Assembly (NCBI GenBank): GCA_002347295.1
Contig: DDXZ01000001.1
Span: 1-50,680 of the forward strand
Length of the DNA: 50,680 nucleotides
Direction: 5' to 3'
Origin: Dehalococcoidia bacterium UBA2247
GTDB lineage: Bacteria; Chloroflexota; Dehalococcoidia; UBA2247
The notes beneath the pieces are model-generated. The model was not told where the DNA came from, ran no database searches, and saw only the letters and a program-made list of their open reading frames with translations. A program made the translations under genes and the position numbers. Positions 211-10,644 of the stretch are shown here, piece after piece (positions within the stretch are counted from its first letter, which is position 1; every line of letters starts with the position of its first letter).

Positions 211-1522
211 GTCCCGAATGTGGTGGAAAAAGGAATCGGCATATACTACCCTATAGGAAAGCCAAATAAAGACAAGGGAGGATATACCGATGAAGAAAGG
301 ATACCACAAGGGACAGGAATTGACCATGTCAGAGCTGGGGTTATCGCTGGAAGAGCTTGCCGGCCAGCCACTGGAGCTGTTCGCCAGGGAGGGAGCAAAG
401 CTGCTGTTAATGGTAGGGCTGGAGGAAGAGGTCACCGCTGCTCTCATGCGCCGGCCGTATGAGCGCAGCCAAGGCCAAGGTCGTCGGTTACCGCAATGGT
501 CACCGTGACCGCCGGGTAAGCTGCGGGGCCGGTGTAATTGAGGTACCGGTGCCTCGGGTCTCAGATACCGAAGAGGCCTTTCGCTCCCAGCTGCTCGAAG
601 CCTGGCAGCGCCGCAGCAAGCTACTGGAAGAGACGATTCCTCTCCTCTACGTTGAGGGGTTATCGACGAGGGACTTCAAGCGGGCACTCAAGCCACTATG
701 GGGAAAGAGCGGATTCTCCCGCTCCAGCGTTTCACGGGCAAATAAAGCCCTCAAGGAAGCAGTGCTGGTAGCTCACGGCATCACTCGTGAAGGGGAACGG
801 GTGGTCCTGCACCTGAGCCTCGGTGGCAGAGAGAGCACCGAGTCGTGGAAGGGAGTGCTGAATGACTTGATAGAACGGGGCTTAGGACGACCTCAACTAC
901 TCATCACTGATGGTAACCCGGGACTCCTTAAGGCGATAAAGGATGTCTGGCCGGAAGCTCCGCGGCAGCGCTGTGCTGTCCACCGTATCCGGAATGTGTT
1001 GGCGAGGGTGCCCAAGAAGAAGCAGGATGAGGTCAGAAAAGCAGTAACCCGTATATTCTACGCTGCCTGTTTTGACGATGCCCGTGATGAAGCCAGGCAG
1101 TTTCTGTCCCGCTACAGCCGGGGAGTTCCCCACCGCTTGCGAGGTCCTGGCCCAACACCTTGAGGAATGCCTCACCTTCTATCGCTTCCCCGAGCGTCAC
1201 TGGAAACACATCCGCACCTCAAACGTCATCGAGCGGTCTTTCAAGGAGGTCAAGAGAAGGACCAGGGTAGTCGGTCGCTTCCCGAACGAGACATCGGCGC
1301 TGGTGATGGTTTTCAGTCTTCTGGAGGAAGAGAGGATGAAGTGGCAGAAGGTCGGGATGAGAGCCGAGGATATCGCCTGGATAGAGGAGGCATCAAAAGC
1401 ATTGGAACAAGAACCAATCAGACTGGAATTCCTGGAAGAAATGCTGGTTGCTTAAAGGGATTGACTGAGATGGCAGAAGGGAATAGGATATGGCTAGATC
1501 AAATTTCCACCAGTTATGGGAC
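211..1522 (+). mobile_element. Decayed IS256-family insertion sequence
   Basis: Imperfect terminal inverted repeats: gtcccgaatgtggtggaaa (211-229) versus the reverse complement of 1504-1522 (gtcccataactggtggaaa), 15 of 19 identical. They bracket the broken IS256-type transposase gene. I found no clean target-site duplication. Confidence 0.65.
290..1455 (+). pseudogene. IS256-family (mutator-type) transposase, inactivated
   Basis: The reading frame is split over three track ORFs (290-508, 459-1163, 1072-1455), so there are at least two frameshifts. The segment between ...ANKALKEA and VLVAHGITREGERV... looks deleted, including where IS256 transposases carry the first catalytic Asp region. C-terminal IS256 hallmarks are present (TSNVIERSFKEVKRRTRVVGRFPNE). 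Confidence 0.8.
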
Positions 1523-1626
1523 GCAGCCACCACAACGCAAAGGTTAAAACCTTTCTGGATTCTCTGCACTCTGAGGGTTCCCGAGCCAGAGCATGGCAAC
1601 ATTTTGCATAACATCAGTTATTCATC

Positions 1627-2850
1627 TTACAACGTTCTCTGCTTTTCATTAACGAATTTTTCTAATACTCTGTCTAAATAGTTTATCTGTTCATCGGTAA
1701 TATCCTGGTGAACACCGATATGAAGCCCATTATCCGCAATATAGTCCGATTCAGGGAATTGTCCTTCTCTATAACCGAGATATTTGAATCCGGCACACTG
1801 GGTAGGCATGGTCTGGAACATATTGCGGCTGTCAATGCCGTTCTTTTCCAGGTAATTGACCAGTGCATCACGAGTAAAACCGGTACCTTCTTTCAAGATT
1901 ATCGGAAAGGCATGCGGCCCGATTTTCTCATGGGCTTCTTCCTGAATAGTAAACATATATTTATCATATTTTTGGATAACCTGCATCATAGCATGCAGGT
2001 TATGTGTCCGTTTTGTCAGTATGGCAGCATACTGCTCCAGCGCTCCCAGTCCAATCGCCGCTTCCAGTTCATTCATTTTGCAGGAGAAGCCAAAGCGTTC
2101 GAAGACGAAGCGAATATCCGTATGCGCCGGATTATTGAAACGTTTGGCGCAGTAACCGGAACCGGTGCTGACGACACAGGTCTCGCATTTGCAGGCACGG
2201 CCATGGGAGCGTAAAGAACGTAATATCTCTGCTTTTTCAGTATCATTAGTAATCACAATGCCGCCTTCTCCGGTTGTGATGATATGAGCAACATAGAGGC
2301 TGAAGGCCGCTAAATCTCCCAACGTGCCTACTTTTTTGCCTTTGTATTCGGCACCATGCGCTTCCGCCGCGTCCTCAATCACTTTTAAATGATGTTTCCG
2401 GGCGATTTTGCTGATCTCATCCATTTTTGCCGGCTTACCCATGAGATGTACCGGCATAATCGCGATGGTTTTTTCAGTGATAGCACTCTCAATCAAATCA
2501 GGATTAATATTGAGAGTTTCCCGTTCGACATCAACAAACACCGGCGTGAAACCGGCATGCAAAACGGCATTTCCGGTAGCGACAAAACTGAGCGCGGGAA
2601 GAATCACTTCATCGCCGCGGTGCGCACCATAATCATAGAGAACAGCCAGAGCAAGGGCGTCGGCATCGGTCCCGGTGCTCACTGCCACTGCTTCTTTCAC
2701 CCCATAAAGAGCAGCGAATTTCTTCTCAAATTCGCGTACCAATTTACCGCTGGAGATTCTTTTACTGTCCAGTGCTTCGTTAATCAGCCGCTTCGCCGTA
2801 TCGGTGATACAAATTGTGCCAAACGGGATGCCCATTTTTTTCTCAGTCAT
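1627..2850 (-). CDS. DegT/DnrJ/EryC1-fold PLP/PMP enzyme, sugar 3-dehydratase type (RfbH/E1/ColD-like) rather than a plain aminotransferase
   Basis: 407-aa ORF with the fold signature ...DLAAFSLYVAHIITTGEGG.... His189 (codon 2284-2286) sits where aminotransferases of this fold carry the Schiff-base Lys. It is followed by SLRSHGRACKCETCVVSTGSGYCAKRF (CxCxxCx8C), resembling the RfbH/E1 region. Confidence 0.7.
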   Translation of the reverse strand: MTEKKMGIPFGTICITDTAKRLINEALDSKRISSGKLVREFEKKFAALYGVKEAVAVSTGTDADALALAVLYDYGAHRGDEVILPALSFVATGNAVLHAGFTPVFVDVERETLNINPDLIESAITEKTIAIMPVHLMGKPAKMDEISKIARKHHLKVIEDAAEAHGAEYKGKKVGTLGDLAAFSLYVAHIITTGEGGIVITNDTEKAEILRSLRSHGRACKCETCVVSTGSGYCAKRFNNPAHTDIRFVFERFGFSCKMNELEAAIGLGALEQYAAILTKRTHNLHAMMQVIQKYDKYMFTIQEEAHEKIGPHAFPIILKEGTGFTRDALVNYLEKNGIDSRNMFQTMPTQCAGFKYLGYREGQFPESDYIADNGLHIGVHQDITDEQINYLDRVLEKFVNEKQRTL

Positions 2851-3075
2851 GACTCATTCCTCTAACAATGATAAATTCTACTTAAATTCCAAATCCTAAA
2901 ATCCAAATTCCAGATAAATTCCTAAATCCTAAAATCCAATTTCCAAGCACCAAATAACAAATTACAATTAAGCCTCAAGCTTCAAGTTCCAAATCTCAAA
3001 CTACGTTTAAATTACAAACACCAAATTCCAGATAAATAGTTTGTGTTTTGTGATTTGAGATTTGGAATTTTCTCC
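2851..3075. repeat. Imperfect long palindrome with an A+C-rich arm and a G+T-rich arm, built from AAATCC/AAATTCC-type units (family copy 1)
   Basis: Internal duplications: aaatcctaaaatcca occurs twice and ccaaattccagataaat occurs twice. Left arm ttccaaatctcaaa...acaaacac (about 2985-3018) pairs with gtttgtgttttgtgatttgagatttggaa (about 3039-3068). A core at 2943-2968 matches the reverse complement of 26248-26270. Confidence 0.6.
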
Positions 3076-4653
3076 TCAGGCGTATTTTCGTTTAATCTTG
3101 CGCTGGAGCATTTCCGTGATGTGCTCGGCGACATGAGCGCCAAATTTTTCTGTAATCAACTGTAAATACACAGGGTTGCGGAAATATTCGTCAAAAGCCT
3201 GGTCGCGAAAACGTAAAACCTCAGCCGCAGAGAGGTGTTTGGTGGGGAGAGGCAAGGTCTCTTCAGCATATTGCGAATAGCCGTGCCATACTTCAGGTAA
3301 TTTAATGTCCTGTTGAATCGCCTCTTCATACAATGTGGAGCCGGGATAAGCCATGGCAGTATAGAAGTTGATATACTCAAAGTTATAAGCTTTTGCCATA
3401 TCAAGTGTCGCGCGCATCGTCTCCAGGTCATCATCAGGAAGACCGAAGATAAAATTACCGATAATAGAAATACCTGCCTCTTTCGTCATTTCAATTGCTT
3501 TTTGGGTGACATCTTCTTTCGTTTTCTTACGAACACCCTGGCGGACTATCTCACTGGCGGATTCAAAGCCATAAGCCAGCCAGTTAATTCCCGCCTGTTT
3601 CATTTTGCGCAGCATAGGAGCAGTGACGGTATCCACCCGGGCATAAGCCCAGATATTCAAATCATAACCACCGGCGATAATAAGGTCGCAGATACGGTTC
3701 ACCCGTTCTTCATCGAGAGCAAATAGTTCGTCGAGGAACTTGATATTTTGCACGCCGTATTTTTTCACCAGCAAATCAATCTCGGCGACTACCTTTTCCG
3801 GACTGCGGAGACGAATTCCGGGTTTACCGTTATAGAGTGCTCTCACATTGCAGTAGCTGCAATTGAAAGGACATCCCAGGCTGGTGTAAATAGCGGCATA
3901 GGGCTGCCTGCGGTCAAGATGAGCGAAACAGTGCCAGTTATGTGCCCGATACTTCTCCATAGGTAATAAATCCCACGCTGCAAAGGGCAATTCATCCGGG
4001 TTAACCAGAGGCGCCGGAGGGCTTGCGATAACCTTACCCTGACGAAGATACCAGAGGCCGGGAATGGTACAACCGCTGACATCTTTGCCTGCTTTTAATG
4101 CTTCCAGGAGAGGCAAAACAGTAGCAAACCCTTCGCCCTGGCAAACAAAATCCGCTTTTTCTTCTTTGAGAGTCCGTTCGGGAAGAGCTGATGTGTGCAG
4201 GCCGTTGAAAAACACCTTGATATGGGGAGCCTTTTCTTTAATTGAAGCGGCAACCTCGCCGGCGGCCGTCATTTTGGGAGTAGAGGAAGCGGAAGGATTG
4301 GAACCGAGGACAATAATTCCCGCCAGCAGAGGATTATACTCCGCAACCCGGGCGGCTGTTTGCTGCGGGTTGAGATTCTCCGCTTCGGCATCGATAATCT
4401 TTACCGAATACCCTTGTTCGCGGATATATGCTGCGAGCACGCCCGCCCAGAGCGGCGGTTCGATACCGGCGAGGGAAGCACCCAATCCGCCATAGACCTG
4501 TGTCCGTGCTCCAGGATTGACTAAAAGTAAATCAAGCTTTTGTTCCAACGGATATTCTTTAACCTTCCCAAGTATATTTTTTATTATTGTAACCAGCGCA
4601 GGATGCCGGTGGTGATGCTGGCAACATCCAGGCCAAGATGAGAATGTAAACAT
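3076..4653 (-). CDS. B12-binding-domain radical SAM enzyme (class B type)
   Basis: N-terminal Rossmann-like B12-binding region (LLLVNPGAR...) and the radical SAM cluster motif GCPFNCSYCNV. The annotated 5' end overlaps the upstream gene by 70 nt. The true start may be the internal TTG at 4548 (codon 36, giving ..EQKLDLLLVNP). Confidence 0.85.
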   Translation of the reverse strand: MFTFSSWPGCCQHHHRHPALVTIIKNILGKVKEYPLEQKLDLLLVNPGARTQVYGGLGASLAGIEPPLWAGVLAAYIREQGYSVKIIDAEAENLNPQQTAARVAEYNPLLAGIIVLGSNPSASSTPKMTAAGEVAASIKEKAPHIKVFFNGLHTSALPERTLKEEKADFVCQGEGFATVLPLLEALKAGKDVSGCTIPGLWYLRQGKVIASPPAPLVNPDELPFAAWDLLPMEKYRAHNWHCFAHLDRRQPYAAIYTSLGCPFNCSYCNVRALYNGKPGIRLRSPEKVVAEIDLLVKKYGVQNIKFLDELFALDEERVNRICDLIIAGGYDLNIWAYARVDTVTAPMLRKMKQAGINWLAYGFESASEIVRQGVRKKTKEDVTQKAIEMTKEAGISIIGNFIFGLPDDDLETMRATLDMAKAYNFEYINFYTAMAYPGSTLYEEAIQQDIKLPEVWHGYSQYAEETLPLPTKHLSAAEVLRFRDQAFDEYFRNPVYLQLITEKFGAHVAEHITEMLQRKIKRKYA

Positions 4654-5519
4654 TCTCTGCTGGCATACTGAAAAACGTACTGGTTCTCTGTTCCTAATCG
4701 TTTCAATCGTGATTGGCAGCCATTATCCGCCATAACTTCGGCAACAATACTGCCGATGCCGCCGGCAACCAGGTCTTCCGCCAGTGTCACCACCGGCTTA
4801 TTCTTTCCCATAACCTGGAGCAGTAAATTATCATTAACCGGACTGAGACGGTAAAGATCAACAATTGCAGCATCAATAGAGTGTTTGAGCAGTTCCTCTG
4901 TCACTTTAAATGCCTGGTGCACCATCATTCCGGAGGCGATAATAGTCATGTCTTTGCCTCGTTTTAGTAATGCCAGGCCGTCAGAAAAGTCATGCTTCTC
5001 TTCATAGCGTAAAGGAAACTTTTCCCGGTCCAGACGGATATATTTCGGCCCGGGGTCGCGGTAAGACATCCCGGCAAAGGCGGCGACCATAATATTATCC
5101 GAGGGATTATAGACAGTCATGCCGGGAAGAATGCGCATAACGGCAGCATCTTCAGTGGCGTGATGGGTGGGACCGGATGTAGAATAAGAATACCCTGCTC
5201 CTACGCCAACTGCAGTGACATGAAGTTTCATGCAGCATAAATCAAGTTTAATTTGCTCAAAGCAGCGTAAGGTGACAAAGGGAGCAATAGAGTAGATATA
5301 AACAATTTTACCGCTTAGAGCAAGACCGGCGGCAATAGTTACCATGTTCTGCTCCGCCACTCCGGCATTGATATACTGGCGGCTAAGGTCGGTCCGAAAT
5401 TTATCCAGACTGGGAGCGCCAAAATCACCGGTCAAAAGCATGACCCGGTCATCCTGACGTGCGATATCATACAGGGCATCAAAAAAGGCGTCTCTCATGC
5501 TGATATCAGCAATTTTCAT
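4584..5519 (-). CDS. Transketolase, C-terminal (pyrimidine-binding) subunit of a split transketolase
   Basis: 311-aa ORF with typical TktB-like sequence (GDFGAPSLDKF..., GVAEQNMV, GPTHHATEDAAVMR). It overlaps the N-terminal subunit gene by 14 nt. Confidence 0.85.
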   Translation of the reverse strand: MKIADISMRDAFFDALYDIARQDDRVMLLTGDFGAPSLDKFRTDLSRQYINAGVAEQNMVTIAAGLALSGKIVYIYSIAPFVTLRCFEQIKLDLCCMKLHVTAVGVGAGYSYSTSGPTHHATEDAAVMRILPGMTVYNPSDNIMVAAFAGMSYRDPGPKYIRLDREKFPLRYEEKHDFSDGLALLKRGKDMTIIASGMMVHQAFKVTEELLKHSIDAAIVDLYRLSPVNDNLLLQVMGKNKPVVTLAEDLVAGGIGSIVAEVMADNGCQSRLKRLGTENQYVFQYASRECLHSHLGLDVASITTGILRWLQ

Positions 5520-6369
5520 GGTCTGACCCCCTGTTTAATTCATTCTCTTTCTGCTGCAGCTCTTCTCGTGCCAGGGAAATGTATTTTCCGGAAACAGAAG
5601 TCGCATGCCAGAGAGGGATATTCTCCATAAAAGAGAGTCCTTTCCCTTTGGTGGTTTGCGCGATTAGAACCAGTGGTTTCTCTGACTTCCGGGAGCGGAA
5701 ATTTGCTAATGCCTGGAGAATATCAGGGAAAGAGTGCCCATCGATAACAGTGGCATCCCAGCTAAAGGATTGCCATTTTTCAGCGAAAGGGTTTAAACGG
5801 AGAAAATTCTCCGTAAAATCGGTAACTCCCAGAAAATTGCGGTCTACAATAGCCACCAAATTGTTCAGTTGGTGATGTCCGGCAAACATGGCTGCTTCCC
5901 AGACAGAACCTTCCTGACATTCTCCATCGCCCAGCAAAACAACCGTCATATATTGCTCTTTATTCATCTTCGCTGCCAGCGCCATGCCCGAACCCAATCC
6001 CAGTCCATGACCTAACGAACCGGCAACAACTTCTGTTCCCGGGATATTATTCTCGGCGATTGCTCCCAGTATACAATTTTCCTGACAGAATGTTTCCAGA
6101 TTATGCAGCGGGAAAAACCCCTGGTCTGCCAGTATGGGATACAGGCTGATAGCATGACCTTTACTCATAATAAAACGGTCCCGTTCCGGCCAGAGCGGAT
6201 TTTCGGGGTCAACTCTCAGGATACCGCCATAGTAGAGAGAAACGAGAATTTCTACACTGGAAAAGGCAGAAGCGAGGAATCCGGTATTAGCACGCACGCA
6301 CATTTCCAGTGTTTGCCGGCGCACCCAGTTCGCTTTTCTTTCCAGTTTTATTATTTCTTGCCCTGACAT
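5506..6369 (-). CDS. Transketolase, N-terminal (ThDP-binding) subunit of a split transketolase
   Basis: 287-aa ORF with the ThDP motif region GSLGHGLGLGSGMALA and LLGDGECQEGSVWEAAMFAGHHQLNNLVAIVDRN. Confidence 0.85.
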   Translation of the reverse strand: MSGQEIIKLERKANWVRRQTLEMCVRANTGFLASAFSSVEILVSLYYGGILRVDPENPLWPERDRFIMSKGHAISLYPILADQGFFPLHNLETFCQENCILGAIAENNIPGTEVVAGSLGHGLGLGSGMALAAKMNKEQYMTVVLLGDGECQEGSVWEAAMFAGHHQLNNLVAIVDRNFLGVTDFTENFLRLNPFAEKWQSFSWDATVIDGHSFPDILQALANFRSRKSEKPLVLIAQTTKGKGLSFMENIPLWHATSVSGKYISLAREELQQKENELNRGSDHENC

Positions 6370-6390: not shown

Positions 6391-7383
6391 TTAAGATTTC
6401 TCGGGCTCGTAAAAAATTATCTGACTGCCCCGATTTTCAAATTGAAAGGGGACATATAGGAGCTTATTTAAACTCTTCTTGATTTGAGTTTGTACTTCAG
6501 GCGGCGCGAAGAACAAAATAAATCCCCCTCCGCCGGCACCTAAAAGTTTTCCTCCCAGGGCTCCGGCACTGCGAGCAGCAGTATAGATATCATCAATCTC
6601 TGTTGTGGATATCTTATTGGTCAGGCTTTTCTTAAGGCACCATGTTTCGTGGAGCAGCTTACCAAAATCCGTTAAGTCATTACCATTGAGGATGGAGATT
6701 GCCTGGAATACCATTTGATACATTTCATGCAATGTTTTCTTTTTATTAGGGGTCTCTTTTATCTGTTCCCCGGCAATTTCAGAAGCTCTGCGCGAGAAGC
6801 CGGTAAAAAACAACATGAGACTTTTCTGGAATAGCGCCAGTTTTTCACCATTGATAGTAATCGGCTTAACTTGAATGGATGGTTCTCCTTTTCCAATTTC
6901 AATTTGATTAAAGCCCCCGAATGCGGCCATAATCTGGTCCTGCGAACCCACATTTTCTTTAATCATCTTTTGTTCGATATGAATAGCATTGAGAGCCAGC
7001 TCTATTTTACCCGGGATAGTACCTTTCAAGGCGTAAAGGGCATTTAAAAGACCGACGGTAAAGGCCGAACTGGAGCCTAACCCGCTCATGGCAGGCAAGT
7101 CACCGTCGTGGTGTATCTCTACTCCCTGAGCGATATTCATGAAGCGCAGAGTTTCCCTTGCCGAGGGATGCTGTATTTCATCAATATTACGGACCTGCTC
7201 CATTCTGGAATAGATTATACGGTGCTTATGCTCAAAGAACGGTGGTAAATAGCGGCAGGTAATATAGCAATATTTATTGATGGTGGTGCCTAATACGGCA
7301 CCGCCGTTTTCCTCGTACCATACGGGATAATCGGTTCCACCACCGAAAAAAGAAATCCGAAACGGAGTCCGACTGATAATCAC
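6391..7383 (-). CDS. hddA: GHMP-family sugar kinase, D-glycero-D-manno-heptose 7-phosphate kinase-like
   Basis: N-terminus RTPFRISFFGGGTDYP...GGAVLGTTINKYCY and GHMP motif PAMSGLGSSSAF. It sits with gmhA and gmhB in the same operon direction. Confidence 0.65.
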   Translation of the reverse strand: MIISRTPFRISFFGGGTDYPVWYEENGGAVLGTTINKYCYITCRYLPPFFEHKHRIIYSRMEQVRNIDEIQHPSARETLRFMNIAQGVEIHHDGDLPAMSGLGSSSAFTVGLLNALYALKGTIPGKIELALNAIHIEQKMIKENVGSQDQIMAAFGGFNQIEIGKGEPSIQVKPITINGEKLALFQKSLMLFFTGFSRRASEIAGEQIKETPNKKKTLHEMYQMVFQAISILNGNDLTDFGKLLHETWCLKKSLTNKISTTEIDDIYTAARSAGALGGKLLGAGGGGFILFFAPPEVQTQIKKSLNKLLYVPFQFENRGSQIIFYEPEKS

Positions 7384-7426: not shown

Positions 7427-8359
7427 TTAGATATTACTGAACTGATTTCTTTTGATGACCTGATATCCTTTTATCAGTTCCGTGATACCCTGCTGTAATG
7501 ATACATCCGGTTGATAACCGGTAGCTTCAATCTTGGCATTACTCACGATGTAATTTCTTTTATCAGGGTCTTCACCGACCGAAGCTTCCACAAAGTAGAA
7601 AGCGGGTATCTGTTTTTTAATCTCTTCACATAATTCCCATTTACTTAAGTTAGCTGTGGAAAGACCAACATTATACGCTTCATTTTTCATTTTAGTGAAA
7701 TTATCCAGGCAATGGATAAATGCTTTGGCGACATCCCGGACATGAACATAATTTCTCTTGAAATGAGCTTCAAAAAGAATAATAAAACGATCGTTAACGG
7801 CACGATAGGTAAAATCATTTACCAGCAGGTCCAGACGCATGCGGGGGCTGACTCCAAAGACTGTTGCTAATCTTAACGTAATGGCATTGCCGGCATGCAG
7901 GACAGCTTGTTCTGCTTCTACTTTCAGACTGCCGTAGAGAGAGACAGGATTTAAGGGAGTATCTTCGGTACAGTAAATTCCTTCCTGTCCCACTCCGTAA
8001 CCACTGTTTGTTGTCGGATATATTATTATCTGGTTACTATGGCGTAATTCCAGAAGCATTTTAATAGCATCAAGATTAGTAGTGCGTGCTGCAATCGGGT
8101 CTTGAGCACAGAGGGGTGCTCCCGTTAAGCAGGCCAGAGGGATGATTGCATCCACATCCTTTAAATATTTTGAAATGACGGATTTATCACGTGTATCACC
8201 GCGAACTATGTCCAGATTTTTGTTATTACAGCAGTCGAGTAATGACGACTGGTTATACATGAAGTTATCCAGTGCCACGACCTTATGGCCTTGATTCAAT
8301 AGAGCTGGCACTAATATAGAACCAATAAAACCAGCAGCACCCGTTACCATTATTTTCAT
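7427..8359 (-). CDS. NAD-dependent sugar-nucleotide epimerase/dehydratase (extended SDR)
   Basis: Canonical MKIMVTGAAGFIGS Rossmann motif and SDR-like core. 310 aa. Confidence 0.85.
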   Translation of the reverse strand: MKIMVTGAAGFIGSILVPALLNQGHKVVALDNFMYNQSSLLDCCNNKNLDIVRGDTRDKSVISKYLKDVDAIIPLACLTGAPLCAQDPIAARTTNLDAIKMLLELRHSNQIIIYPTTNSGYGVGQEGIYCTEDTPLNPVSLYGSLKVEAEQAVLHAGNAITLRLATVFGVSPRMRLDLLVNDFTYRAVNDRFIILFEAHFKRNYVHVRDVAKAFIHCLDNFTKMKNEAYNVGLSTANLSKWELCEEIKKQIPAFYFVEASVGEDPDKRNYIVSNAKIEATGYQPDVSLQQGITELIKGYQVIKRNQFSNI

Positions 8360-8388: not shown

Positions 8389-9327
8389 TTATTGATGCAT
8401 CTCTTCACTTATGCGTTGATTCCGGTACCATTGGTACGTTTTACGAATTCCTTCTTCCAGATTATTTTTTGGTTTCCAGCCCAGTTGGCTTAATCTATCA
8501 GTATCTAATAATTTCCGTATTGTACCATCCGGTTTGGTTTTATCAAAGACCACATCTCCGCTAAATCCTACAATATCTTTTACCAGTAAAGCTAAATCCT
8601 TGATCATCATGTCTTCACCGTAACCGATATTGATAATTTCAGAACTATTATAATTGTCCATCAGAAAAACACAGGCATCCGCCAGGTCGTCGATATACAT
8701 GAATCCGCGACGGGGCGTACCGGTACCCCAGAGAGTAATACTATTTTTCTCCTTCGTTTTAGCATCATGAAACTTATAAATTAAAGACGCCAGCACATGT
8801 GCTGTTTCCGGATTAAAATCATCATGCGGCCCATAGAGATTGTCCGGAATTACGGAAACGAAATTAGTATGATATTGTCTATTATATGATTGACACATAC
8901 GTATCCCGGCAATTTTAGCGATAGCATAAGATTCACTGGTAGGTTCCAGTAGCCCGGTCAAAAGATATTCTTCTTTCATCGGCTGCGGACACACCCGGGG
9001 ATAAATACAGGAACTTGCCAGGAAAATCAGCTTCTTAACCTGCGACTGCCAGGCAAAATGAATCACATTATTTTGAATCTGGAGATTACTATAAATAAAT
9101 TCCGCCGGATATGTCTGATTAGCGATAATGCCGCCTACCCTGCCCGCAGCCAGAAAAACATATTCCGGTTTCTCAATTAAGAAAAAATTTCTAACAGCTA
9201 ACTGGTCAGTAAGGTCTATCTCTGCCGTAATAATATTGGTGTATCCTCTGTCCTTAAGACAGCAGATGAGAGACAATCCCTCCATTCTTGATTTGTCAGC
9301 AATAAATATCCTGGAATCTTTGTTCAT
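8389..9327 (-). CDS. GDP-L-fucose synthase-like (Fcl/WcaG family) SDR epimerase/reductase
   Basis: Collinear with E. coli Fcl as I remember it (VGGIIANQTYPAEFIY, SSCIYP, SYAIAKIAG, LYGPHDDF, KPDGT.RKLLD). The N-terminal glycine loop reads IADKSRMEG instead of GxxGxxG. Confidence 0.75.
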   Translation of the reverse strand: MNKDSRIFIADKSRMEGLSLICCLKDRGYTNIITAEIDLTDQLAVRNFFLIEKPEYVFLAAGRVGGIIANQTYPAEFIYSNLQIQNNVIHFAWQSQVKKLIFLASSCIYPRVCPQPMKEEYLLTGLLEPTSESYAIAKIAGIRMCQSYNRQYHTNFVSVIPDNLYGPHDDFNPETAHVLASLIYKFHDAKTKEKNSITLWGTGTPRRGFMYIDDLADACVFLMDNYNSSEIINIGYGEDMMIKDLALLVKDIVGFSGDVVFDKTKPDGTIRKLLDTDRLSQLGWKPKNNLEEGIRKTYQWYRNQRISEEMHQ

Positions 9328-9347: not shown

Positions 9348-9971
9348 TCAGGATTGGTTTGTCTGCGCTATAATCCATTCTACTGCCTCATATAAATTTG
9401 TCGCAATATGGTCGGACGCCGGGGGAATTTTTACCTGTTGACCCGGCAACTTGTTATCAAGGAGCAAAATTGTTTTGCATCCTGCCCCACGGCCGGCTTC
9501 AATATCGCTCATTTTATCACCGATAAGAAAAGATTTATTTAAATTGATATTGAGTTCTTCGGCGGACTGACGGAGCATTCCCGGATTGGGTTTTCGACAA
9601 TTACATTCTCTTCTGTATTCGGGGATAATTCCTTCCGGATGATGGGGACAATAGTATATCTTATCGATAAAAGCATCTTCCTGAGACAGGAGCTGCCGGA
9701 TATAATCATTAATGTCACGAACAACTTCTTCTGTAAAATAACCTCTGGCAACACCGGCCTGATTGGTAACTACTACCACTTTGAACCCATTTTTGTTCAG
9801 TAATTTAATGGCAGCGGCTACTTGTGGTAAAAATCTGACTTTGTTTCGTTCATGAAGATGGTCAGTGTCCTCAACAATTGTCCCGTCTCGATCCAGAAAT
9901 ACTGCCTTTACCACTTCAAATCCTTTTAGTTTCTTTATCATTACTGAATAGTTGTGCTTCGACAAGTTCAC
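9348..9971 (-). CDS. gmhB: D,D-heptose 1,7-bisphosphate phosphatase (HAD family)
   Basis: FLDRDGTI..., VVVTNQAGVARGYF, YYCPHHPEG...C.CRKPNPGML and GDKMSDIEAG. The start is probably the internal Met at MIKKLKG (9944). Confidence 0.8.
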   Translation of the reverse strand: MNLSKHNYSVMIKKLKGFEVVKAVFLDRDGTIVEDTDHLHERNKVRFLPQVAAAIKLLNKNGFKVVVVTNQAGVARGYFTEEVVRDINDYIRQLLSQEDAFIDKIYYCPHHPEGIIPEYRRECNCRKPNPGMLRQSAEELNINLNKSFLIGDKMSDIEAGRGAGCKTILLLDNKLPGQQVKIPPASDHIATNLYEAVEWIIAQTNQS

Positions 9972-10536
9972 ATACGATATGACCGATAGTGATATGTGCT
10001 TCCTGGATACGAGCCGTATTGTGGGAAGGTACGGCTAAGACCAGGTCTGCTATCTCTGCCATCTTTTCCCCATTAGCTCCGGTGAGAACGATAGTCCTGG
10101 CTCCTTTACTTCGGGCAGCTTCCAGTGCTTCCAGTACGTTGCGCGAATTACCACTGGTGCTGATACCGATTACGATGTCTTTTTCCGTCACCAGCGCTTC
10201 CACCTGACGGCTAAACACCATATTGTAATCATAATCGTTGGCTACCGCTGTTAATATGGAGGTGTTGGTAGTGAGAGCAATGGCGGGAAGGGCTTGTCTC
10301 TCTAATTGGAATCGTCCTACCAGTTCCCCGGCAATATGTTGTGCATCAGCCGCACTACCACCATTACCGCACAGAACTACCTTACCATTATTTTTGAACA
10401 CATCAATAACAAGATTCACCATGAGTTCTATATCACCAGCCATAGTCTGTGCTATGGTTGCCTTTAAGCGGGCATTTTCTCTGAGCCTGCTTATAATTTC
10501 ACTTTTAACAGTGTTTTTATGGTACATATTATTCAT
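9916..10536 (-). CDS. gmhA: Phosphoheptose isomerase (SIS domain)
   Basis: GNGGSAADAQHIAGELVGRF, ISTSGNSRNV and VLTG motifs. The track ORF extends to 10635, but Met34 (MNNMYHK, ATG at 10536) is the more plausible start. Confidence 0.8.
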   Translation of the reverse strand: MNNMYHKNTVKSEIISRLRENARLKATIAQTMAGDIELMVNLVIDVFKNNGKVVLCGNGGSAADAQHIAGELVGRFQLERQALPAIALTTNTSILTAVANDYDYNMVFSRQVEALVTEKDIVIGISTSGNSRNVLEALEAARSKGARTIVLTGANGEKMAEIADLVLAVPSHNTARIQEAHITIGHIVCELVEAQLFSNDKETKRI

Positions 10537-10644
10537 TGAGCACGGCCCCGGATTACTTTCAATCAATAAAACATTATAGTGCACAGTAATACTAAGGTAA
10601 AGGCTTTTATTGTTCCGCGACCCGTATTGCGTCAAATTAAACTG

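Follow-up and report, generated by a model that had tools for sequence, protein, structure and literature searches.

An E1-like cysteine loop in a DegT-fold protein with His for Lys

We analyzed a stretch of 50,680 nucleotides from Dehalococcoidia bacterium UBA2247 (assembly GCA_002347295.1, contig DDXZ01000001.1, positions 1 to 50,680 of the forward strand), which is referred to as the window below. At positions 1627–2850, the minus strand carries an open reading frame (ORF) with a stop-free translation of 407 amino acids. Its product, designated P0001, is predicted to be a pyridoxamine 5'-phosphate (PMP)-dependent, Fe-S-type nucleoside diphosphate (NDP)-4-keto-sugar 3-dehydrase. P0001 has the full-length DegT/DnrJ/EryC1/StrS fold (Pfam PF01041, 1e-99, 334.6 bits versus a cut-off of 19.8). 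A first-pass annotation of the window had drawn attention to two motifs of the ORF, FSLYVAH(189)IITTGEGG, with His in place of the Lys that binds pyridoxal 5'-phosphate (PLP), and GRAC(220)KC(222)ETC(225)VVSTGSGYC(234)AKRF, a Cys-rich segment reminiscent of RfbH. Reading of the plus strand showed that the codon positions given there are exact: ATG at 2284–2286 is the reverse complement of the His189 codon CAT, and GCA at 2149–2151 that of TGC, encoding Cys234.

A phmmer search against the PDB returned a single full-length alignment of P0001 to E1 (cytidine diphosphate (CDP)-6-deoxy-L-threo-D-glycero-4-hexulose 3-dehydrase, also RfbH/DdhC/AscC) of Yersinia pseudotuberculosis (3BCX), with an E value of 4e-58 and ~31% identity. 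ColD (guanosine diphosphate (GDP)-4-keto-6-deoxymannose 3-dehydratase, 2gms) was also matched over the full length, at a lower score (E value of 1e-48). True aminotransferases (PerA, QdtB, and a metagenomic sugar transaminase) aligned well over the N-terminal 220 residues only, and their alignments broke at the Cys loop. The AlphaFold2 (AF2) model of P0001 had a mean predicted local distance difference test (pLDDT) score of 82.8 and a predicted template modeling (TM) score of 0.85. Foldseek comparisons with this model gave TM scores of 0.8–0.85 to PerA, E1, ColD, and PseC, with 0.84 for E1. His189, encoded by CAT at 2284–2286 on the minus strand, aligned with E1 His220, which corresponds to the position of ColD His188, and Tyr186 aligned with E1 Tyr217. 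The annotation had cautioned that the catalytic Lys might merely be displaced by a few residues. The alignment to E1 revealed no Lys within or adjacent to the Schiff-base motif, indicating that the residue is absent and not shifted. The same replacement of Lys by His is found in E1, ColD, and SpnQ (PMC8987622), the last being the deoxythymidine diphosphate (dTDP)-4-keto-2,6-dideoxyglucose 3-dehydrase of spinosyn forosamine biosynthesis.

A search of 5.8 billion proteins yielded thousands of relatives, and conservation was counted on 121 sequences (best 120 relatives, 65–100% identical). His189 as well as C220, C222, C225, and C234 were invariant in all 121. The motif S-[FL]-x-x-x-K, which holds the Schiff-base Lys of sugar aminotransferases, thus has His189 at its last position in every homolog. 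The PMP/PLP-site residues G60, F89, D160, S184, and Y186, together with the four loop Cys, were invariant across 38–121 homologs. A His/Cys pattern that is unchanged over 121 sequences points to strong selection rather than to a chance feature of one ORF. The best 120 relatives stem from Chloroflexota, Bacillota, Omnitrophota, Nitrospirota, Brocadia, Syntrophorhabdaceae, a lineage of the candidate phyla radiation, and others; their database labels are a generic aminotransferase or no name at all. The carriers of the family are uncultured and mostly anaerobic bacteria.

The Cys loop, C220-x-C222-x2-C225-x8-C234, is encoded at 2149–2193 on the minus strand and would provide the ligands of an Fe-S cluster. 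In the phmmer alignment with 3bcx, C220 and C222 fall on E1 C251 and C253, and C234-AKRF falls on C261-KKRF. The loop of E1 reads CxCx3Cx3C, whereas that of P0001 reads CxCx2Cx8C. Agnihotri et al. reportedly assigned the ligands of the E1 cluster in 2004 to C193, C251, C253, and C261 (C-X57-C-X1-C-X7-C). The spacing is consistent with the 3bcx sequence. P0001 does not contain the E1 motif as such: the column of C193 is occupied by Ala162 (codon 2365–2367, minus strand; EDAAEA versus EDCCDA in E1, the latter with C192 and C193), and the loop spacing is that given above. The Cys segment is nevertheless homologous to the E1 cluster loop, as the annotation had suspected while noting a difference in spacing, with three of the four ligand positions matched and the invariant C225 in addition. 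Cys352 (codon 1795–1797, minus strand) represents a fifth, family-specific conserved Cys; it is present in 119 of the 121 homologs, and the position is occupied by Gln or His in neighboring clades. In E1 and SpnQ, a [2Fe-2S] cluster is bound by four Cys around PMP, whereas ColD is devoid of a cluster (PMC8987622). The invariant four-Cys loop thus separates P0001 from the ColD type, which has no Cys cluster. From these alignments, we infer that the loop of P0001 probably holds an Fe-S cluster.

Position among the His-type DegT proteins

When 1.84 billion cluster representatives were searched exhaustively with HMMER and the matches were aligned and classified, His-type DegT proteins emerged as a large and diverse population. 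Genuine RfbH-like representatives score 442–591 bits on the RfbH model and possess a Cys in the C193 column as well as the Cys loop. Several further His-type lineages, of which the P0001 family is one, have the four-Cys loop without the C193-column Cys, and several have no loop. Of 27 His-type representatives with a loop, 24 showed the pattern CxCxxCx(6-9)C, and 17 of these 24 were without the C193-column Cys. According to these counts, ligands arranged as in P0001 are the common case among the sequences, and the arrangement published for E1 is the minority. Natural fusions of His-type DegT proteins involved solely nucleoside triphosphate (NTP)-transferase, short-chain dehydrogenase/reductase (SDR), and glycosyltransferase (GT) domains of the GT2 or GT1 type, that is, sugar-nucleotide enzymes.

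FastTree, with Lys-type proteins as the root, recovered the P0001 family as a tight clade with a support of 0.99. It belongs to a superclade (support of 0.94–0.96) in which the four-Cys loop occurs on basal branches and loop-less lineages occur among the inner branches. This distribution suggests that the loop is ancestral and was lost repeatedly; the support of intermediate nodes is only 0.81–0.87. We rejected the assignment of P0001 as an RfbH ortholog. RfbH (NF011936) is its best NCBIfam match, but the score of 281 bits is below the cut-off of 423, the protein lies outside the RfbH clade, the C193 column contains Ala, and the genome encodes no E3-type reductase. To locate ColD in the tree, the three loop-less His-type proteins P0162, P0143, and P0140 were compared with the PDB; the top matches were perosamine synthase or E1 and never ColD.

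A separate, large clade of His-type DegT proteins (P0140, P0146, P0153, P0158, and others) has an acidic loop of the HGRDSIYLSIDDDD type in place of the Cys loop. Its members are frequently fused to GT1, GT2, SDR, or methyltransferase domains, and no characterized member was found among the PDB matches.

The cassette in the window and in other genomes

Scans of the window with Pfam and NCBIfam models identified the P0001 gene as the last of nine co-directional genes, all located on the minus strand. The upstream neighbor at 3076–4653 encodes a B12-binding radical S-adenosylmethionine (SAM) enzyme (Pfam B12-binding and Radical_SAM), whose best NCBIfam matches, HpnJ and BchE, are both under the cut-off. 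It is preceded by a split, transketolase (TK)-like thiamine diphosphate (ThDP) enzyme at 4584–6369 (Pfam Transketolase_N, Transket_pyr, and Transketolase_C), consisting of an N-terminal subunit (5506–6369) and a C-terminal subunit (4584–5519). A GHMP kinase follows at 6391–7383 (Pfam GHMP_kinases_N and _C). It is HddA-like, but the match to HddA, although the best in NCBIfam, is weak, with 143 bits versus a cut-off of 600. The gene at 7427–8359 encodes an SDR, designated SDR_A, that resembles the GDP-heptose C4-dehydrogenase Cj1427 (phmmer versus PDB 6vo6/6vo8, 6e-121). In Foldseek, its model reached a TM score of 0.96 at 56% identity to PDB entries titled Cj1427, NAD-dependent dehydrogenase from Campylobacter jejuni, and the matched structures had been solved with GDP-D-glycero-D-manno-heptose. 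The two genes at the far end of the cassette encode the phosphatase GmhB (9348–9971; TIGR00213, 163.9 bits versus a cut-off of 149.6) and the sedoheptulose-7-phosphate isomerase GmhA (9916–10635; TIGR00441, 222 versus 209). Of a GDP-heptose gene set of the C. jejuni type, the cassette has GmhA and GmhB above the cut-offs, a weak HddA-like kinase, and a strong Cj1427 homolog, with no HddC in the cluster. No 4,6-dehydratase is found among the genes of the cassette.

The remaining gene, at 8389–9327, encodes an Fcl-like SDR of the epimerase/4-reductase type, with 429 bits versus a cut-off of 500 for the GDP-L-fucose synthase model of NCBIfam and an E value of 5e-96 to PDB 1bws. Its GxxGxxG motif is degenerate: near 9277–9297, the N-terminus reads IADKSRMEG in place of the Rossmann motif. 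Degenerate versions (e.g., VGHNDIIENSL) recur in many orthologous cassette loci, and others keep AGHNGLIGSA. On account of this recurrence, we consider the degeneracy a trait of the subfamily and not a sign of decay. The nucleotide cofactor is perhaps altered or lost.

The surroundings of the P0001 gene show a number of further features. A spacer of 225 bp (2851–3075) separates the P0001 gene from the radical SAM gene and shows an A/C-rich run and, after it, a G/T-rich one; the corresponding RNA folds no better than shuffled sequence (z of -1.2). Just downstream of the P0001 gene, fragments of a Mutator/IS256-type transposase are located on the plus strand (157–1163), including one at 459–1163 that covers part of the Pfam Transposase_mut profile (175–302 of 379), and they are followed by a 126-amino-acid ORF (1167–1547, plus strand). 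Other loci have glycosyltransferases where the window has transposase fragments. A partial copy of the 126-amino-acid ORF, 53% identical, is located on contig C10 (4645–4797), and the region 157–1547 is therefore probably the remnant of a repeated mobile element and possibly an assembly break point. The sole HddC-type NTP-transferase of the genome is also encoded on contig C10 (984–2045). Its identity to the cassette type is 41%, a hexapeptide-repeat domain is fused to its C-terminus, and its gene adjoins genes for MFS and TRAP transporters outside any sugar cluster. A second glycan cluster on contig C56 (L087:1925–7624) comprises a B12-binding radical SAM enzyme that is 31% identical to that of the window, a uridine diphosphate (UDP)-N-acetylglucosamine 2-epimerase, two SDRs, and a GT4 glycosyltransferase. 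The G+C content was uninformative with respect to recent horizontal transfer, with 40–50% for the cluster and 42.6% for the genome.

The cassette was examined in loci drawn from a Brocadia genome, an Omnitrophota contig, and 72 species genomes, with counts made on 44 loci of at least 15 kb. About 40 loci retain it, with nearly all of its genes running in the same direction. The GHMP kinase (55–67% identical) was present in 39 of the 44 loci and the B12-radical-SAM enzyme in 38, followed by the Cj1427-like SDR (50–75% identical) and an HddC-like NTP-transferase with 37 each and the Fcl-like SDR with 29. About 30 of 42 loci contain a two-subunit ThDP enzyme. This slot is filled either by a split transketolase, as in the window at 4584–6369, or by a pair of pyruvate dehydrogenase (PDH)-E1 alpha and beta subunits (e.g., L003:3892–5912). 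Both types occur intermingled across the DegT tree, a pattern that suggests that non-orthologous enzymes have replaced one another repeatedly. Beyond this core, clustering of all ORFs from 51 loci revealed just glycosyltransferases (including GT9 heptosyltransferase-like proteins), HAD phosphatases, and NTP-transferases. In a literature search, we found no paper on a cassette that joins heptose genes, a radical SAM enzyme, a transketolase, and a GHMP kinase.

One subclade of the cassette-associated family (L049–L068, L075, and L077; e.g., L061:9947–11140) encodes proteins without the Cys loop. These are 53–59% identical, originate from metagenome-assembled genomes of Omnitrophota and Planctomycetales, and form one clade nested in the family. 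Their genes still adjoin those for the Cj1427-like SDR, the B12-radical-SAM enzyme, the kinase, and the NTP-transferase. Since the loop-less subclade has stayed in the cassette, the C3 chemistry of the pathway is evidently feasible without the loop, presumably in the manner of ColD. Among loci of at least 15 kb, a ThDP enzyme accompanied 27 of the 29 Cys-loop proteins (TK or PDH-E1 type) versus 3 of the 13 loop-less ones, and a Lys-type DegT paralog was found in 4 of the 29 and 9 of the 13 loci, respectively. These numbers hint either at a functional link between the loop and the ThDP enzyme or at a switch of the loop-less clade to a 4-amino product. As they go back to a single loop-loss event, the association of loop and ThDP enzyme is suggestive only and beyond a statistical test.

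Proposed reaction and competing explanations

P0001 is very likely a His-type 3-dehydrase and not an aminotransferase, judging from its alignments and conservation. With moderate confidence, we regard it more specifically as a PMP-dependent Fe-S 3-dehydrase of the E1/SpnQ kind that acts on a GDP-4-keto-heptose and obtains its electrons from a general ferredoxin or flavodoxin. The interpretation offered by the first-pass annotation is supported as far as sequence analysis reaches. In the proposed reaction, PMP would form a ketimine with the C4 keto group of the NDP-4-keto sugar, His189 would take the C4' proton, and the C3 hydroxyl would be expelled. The resulting PMP-sugar-ene intermediate would then be reduced in two one-electron steps via the Fe-S cluster, with C220, C222, C225, and C234, possibly together with C352, as cluster ligands. 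Reduction would restore PMP and free the 3-deoxy-4-keto sugar.

The substrate is suggested by the neighboring genes. GmhA, GmhB, the HddA-like kinase, the Cj1427-like dehydrogenase, and the Fcl-like SDR adjoin P0001 and make a GDP-4-keto-heptose the favored candidate, although we hold this view with some reserve. The annotation had not noted that the context favors GDP-heptose over a CDP- or GDP-6-deoxyhexose. Cj1427 is a GDP-heptose C4-dehydrogenase, and a C3-dehydratase converts its product in vitro to GDP-3-deoxy-4-keto-heptose (PMC10680097). Given the nature of the Cj1427 product and the lack of a 4,6-dehydratase in the cassette, the substrate would keep its C6 hydroxyl, unlike the 4-keto-6-deoxy sugars converted by E1 and ColD. 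The likeliest substrate would be GDP-D-glycero-4-keto-D-lyxo-heptose, yielding GDP-3-deoxy-4-keto-heptose. The ThDP enzyme might then add a branch to this product at C4, the B12-radical-SAM enzyme might C-methylate it, and the Fcl-like SDR might epimerize or reduce it.

Such a sequence of steps is similar in its logic to the yersiniose pathway, in which E1/E3 are followed by the ThDP enzyme YerE and then by YerF; AviB1/AviB2-type enzymes likewise perform two-carbon branching. The likeness, a 3-dehydrase followed by a ThDP enzyme that could attack the C4 keto group, is one of gene content. The ThDP enzymes of the cassette are of the TK or PDH-E1 type and not homologs of YerE.

The annotation had found no E3-type reductase in the window, and none is present in the entire genome either. 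A domain search with PF00175 (FNR/E3-type) in the genome, which has a size of 1.52 Mb on 72 contigs and is 98.4% complete, gave zero matches and hence no homolog of E3/AscD. Clustering of ORFs over the 51 loci revealed no ferredoxin, flavodoxin, or reductase conserved in the cassette, and no redox partner occurred among the domains fused to His-type DegT proteins. In the case of SpnQ, pairs of general ferredoxin or flavodoxin with their reductases serve instead of E3 (PMC8987622). As the genome encodes no E3, the donor of any redox cluster in P0001 would be a general ferredoxin or flavodoxin or a component of the cassette itself. We assume that electrons would come from a general low-potential ferredoxin or flavodoxin in the manner of SpnQ.

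With E1, P0001 shares the fold, the His residue, the CxC element, and the last loop Cys with the xKRF sequence. E1, however, is served by a dedicated E3 (AscD), an FNR-like [2Fe-2S] reductase, and belongs to a CDP-glucose context, whereas the context of P0001 is GDP-heptose. SpnQ, a His-type Fe-S enzyme without a dedicated E3, is, by description, the closest mechanistic analogue for the presumed electron supply of P0001; its substrate, a dTDP-2,6-dideoxyhexose of an actinomycete antibiotic pathway, is different. ColD and the GDP-heptose C3-dehydratase of C. jejuni HS:5/HS:11 are His-type DegT-fold proteins that deoxygenate GDP-4-keto sugars at C3, and the C. jejuni enzyme takes the Cj1427 product as a substrate (PMC10680097), but they have no Cys cluster and are recycled by L-glutamate (PMC8987622, PMC10440746), in contrast to P0001 with its invariant four-Cys loop.

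Several observations weigh against an Fe-S-dependent 3-dehydrase that operates in a complete GDP-heptose pathway. The C193 column of E1 contains Ala in P0001 and in all 121 family members. The AF2 model has pLDDT values below 50 at residues 187–194 (His motif), 217–240 (Cys loop), and 243–255, so that a convergence of the Cys residues is unreadable. The P0001 family falls outside the RfbH-like clade (support of 1.0), and its superclade includes loop-less lineages as well. In one monophyletic sister subclade that shares the cassette, the His motif is kept but the Cys loop is gone altogether. Furthermore, an HddC-like nucleotidyltransferase is absent from the cluster of the window, and debris of insertion sequences (IS) flanks it; the pathway may therefore be incomplete in this organism.

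An alternative is a non-redox 3-dehydratase resembling ColD, in which the same His189-dependent elimination would be followed by hydrolysis of the enamine, PMP would be restored from L-glutamate, and the four-Cys loop would hold a structural metal (e.g., Zn) or form disulfides. We consider this alternative unlikely. The loop of P0001 is positionally homologous to the cluster loop of E1 and invariant across 121 sequences from many phyla, a CxCxxC...C loop also occurs in proteins above the RfbH cut-off (e.g., P0152), and nearly all carriers are anaerobes, which is consistent with an oxygen-sensitive cluster. The ColD-like reaction draws its appeal from the GDP-sugar context, with an Fcl-like SDR here and an HddC-like transferase in sister loci, and from the C. 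jejuni heptose C3-dehydratase, which uses PLP and glutamate (PMC10440746). The loop-less relatives in the same cassette, the grouping of the P0001 family with loop-less lineages instead of RfbH, and the genome without an E3 reductase point in the same direction. That P0001 is an ordinary sugar aminotransferase whose Lys is shifted or recruited from elsewhere, for instance K221 of the loop, is hardly conceivable, even though K221 is kept in 111 of the 121 homologs and SpnQ, if deprived of a reductase, catalyzes transamination as a side reaction with PLP and glutamate (PMC8987622). None of the 121 homologs has a Lys within or next to the Schiff-base motif, and His-type and Lys-type proteins separate cleanly over 150 representatives. 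Moreover, some loop-less cassettes encode a Lys-type DegT paralog in addition to the His-type protein, which speaks for distinct functions of the two. On the basis of the E1 alignment and the 121 homologs, we rejected an aminotransferase with a shifted Lys.

A further explanation leaves the function of the family untouched but regards the gene in the window as a leftover that makes no product, stranded in a cassette that is decaying between IS elements. The transposase fragments directly downstream, the missing HddC-like gene, which is present in 37 of 44 other loci, the absence of the adjoining glycosyltransferases seen elsewhere, and the degenerate GxxGxxG motif of the Fcl-like SDR could be taken as signs of such decay. 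We judge it quite unlikely, as all nine ORFs of the cassette are intact, P0001 retains every family-invariant residue, contig C10 encodes an NTP-transferase with 41% identity to the cassette type, and the degenerate Rossmann motif is common to many loci and thus a family trait.

The E1/SpnQ-like reading also has a bolder extension, which strikes us as improbable: the four-Cys loop and the two-subunit ThDP enzyme could form a pair that replaces E3 and powers sugar deoxygenation in the way of pyruvate:ferredoxin oxidoreductase (PFOR). In this case, a ThDP-bound C2 enamine derived from pyruvate or a ketose would be oxidized, and two electrons would pass to the Fe-S cluster of the 3-dehydrase and on to the PMP-sugar-ene. 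In a milder version, the cassette may make an undescribed 3-deoxy, C4-branched, C-methylated heptose, and the self-contained CxCx2Cx8C cluster site may be both ancestral and prevalent, the motif published for E1 being a derived exception.

To our knowledge, Fe-S/PMP 3-dehydrases have been studied in two systems only, E1 and SpnQ. E1/E3 proved hard to reconstitute (PMC7851689). The enzyme type is known; the widespread variant represented by P0001 and its pathway are unstudied. The P0001 family is best described as a distinct, widespread clade with a self-contained four-Cys loop, no E3 partner, and a GDP-heptose tailoring cassette. Among environmental bacteria, an E1-like Cys loop commonly comes without C193 and with one additional Cys in the loop, and, judged from its genes, the P0001 family is apparently independent of an E3 partner and tied to GDP-heptose instead of 6-deoxyhexoses. 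The loop-less sister clade provides a natural control for what the putative cluster does. Thousands of database entries named "aminotransferase" are likely misnamed, and members of the Omnitrophota, Planctomycetota, Elusimicrobiota, Nitrospirota, Chloroflexota, and others probably use the cassette to build a surface sugar that has yet to be described.

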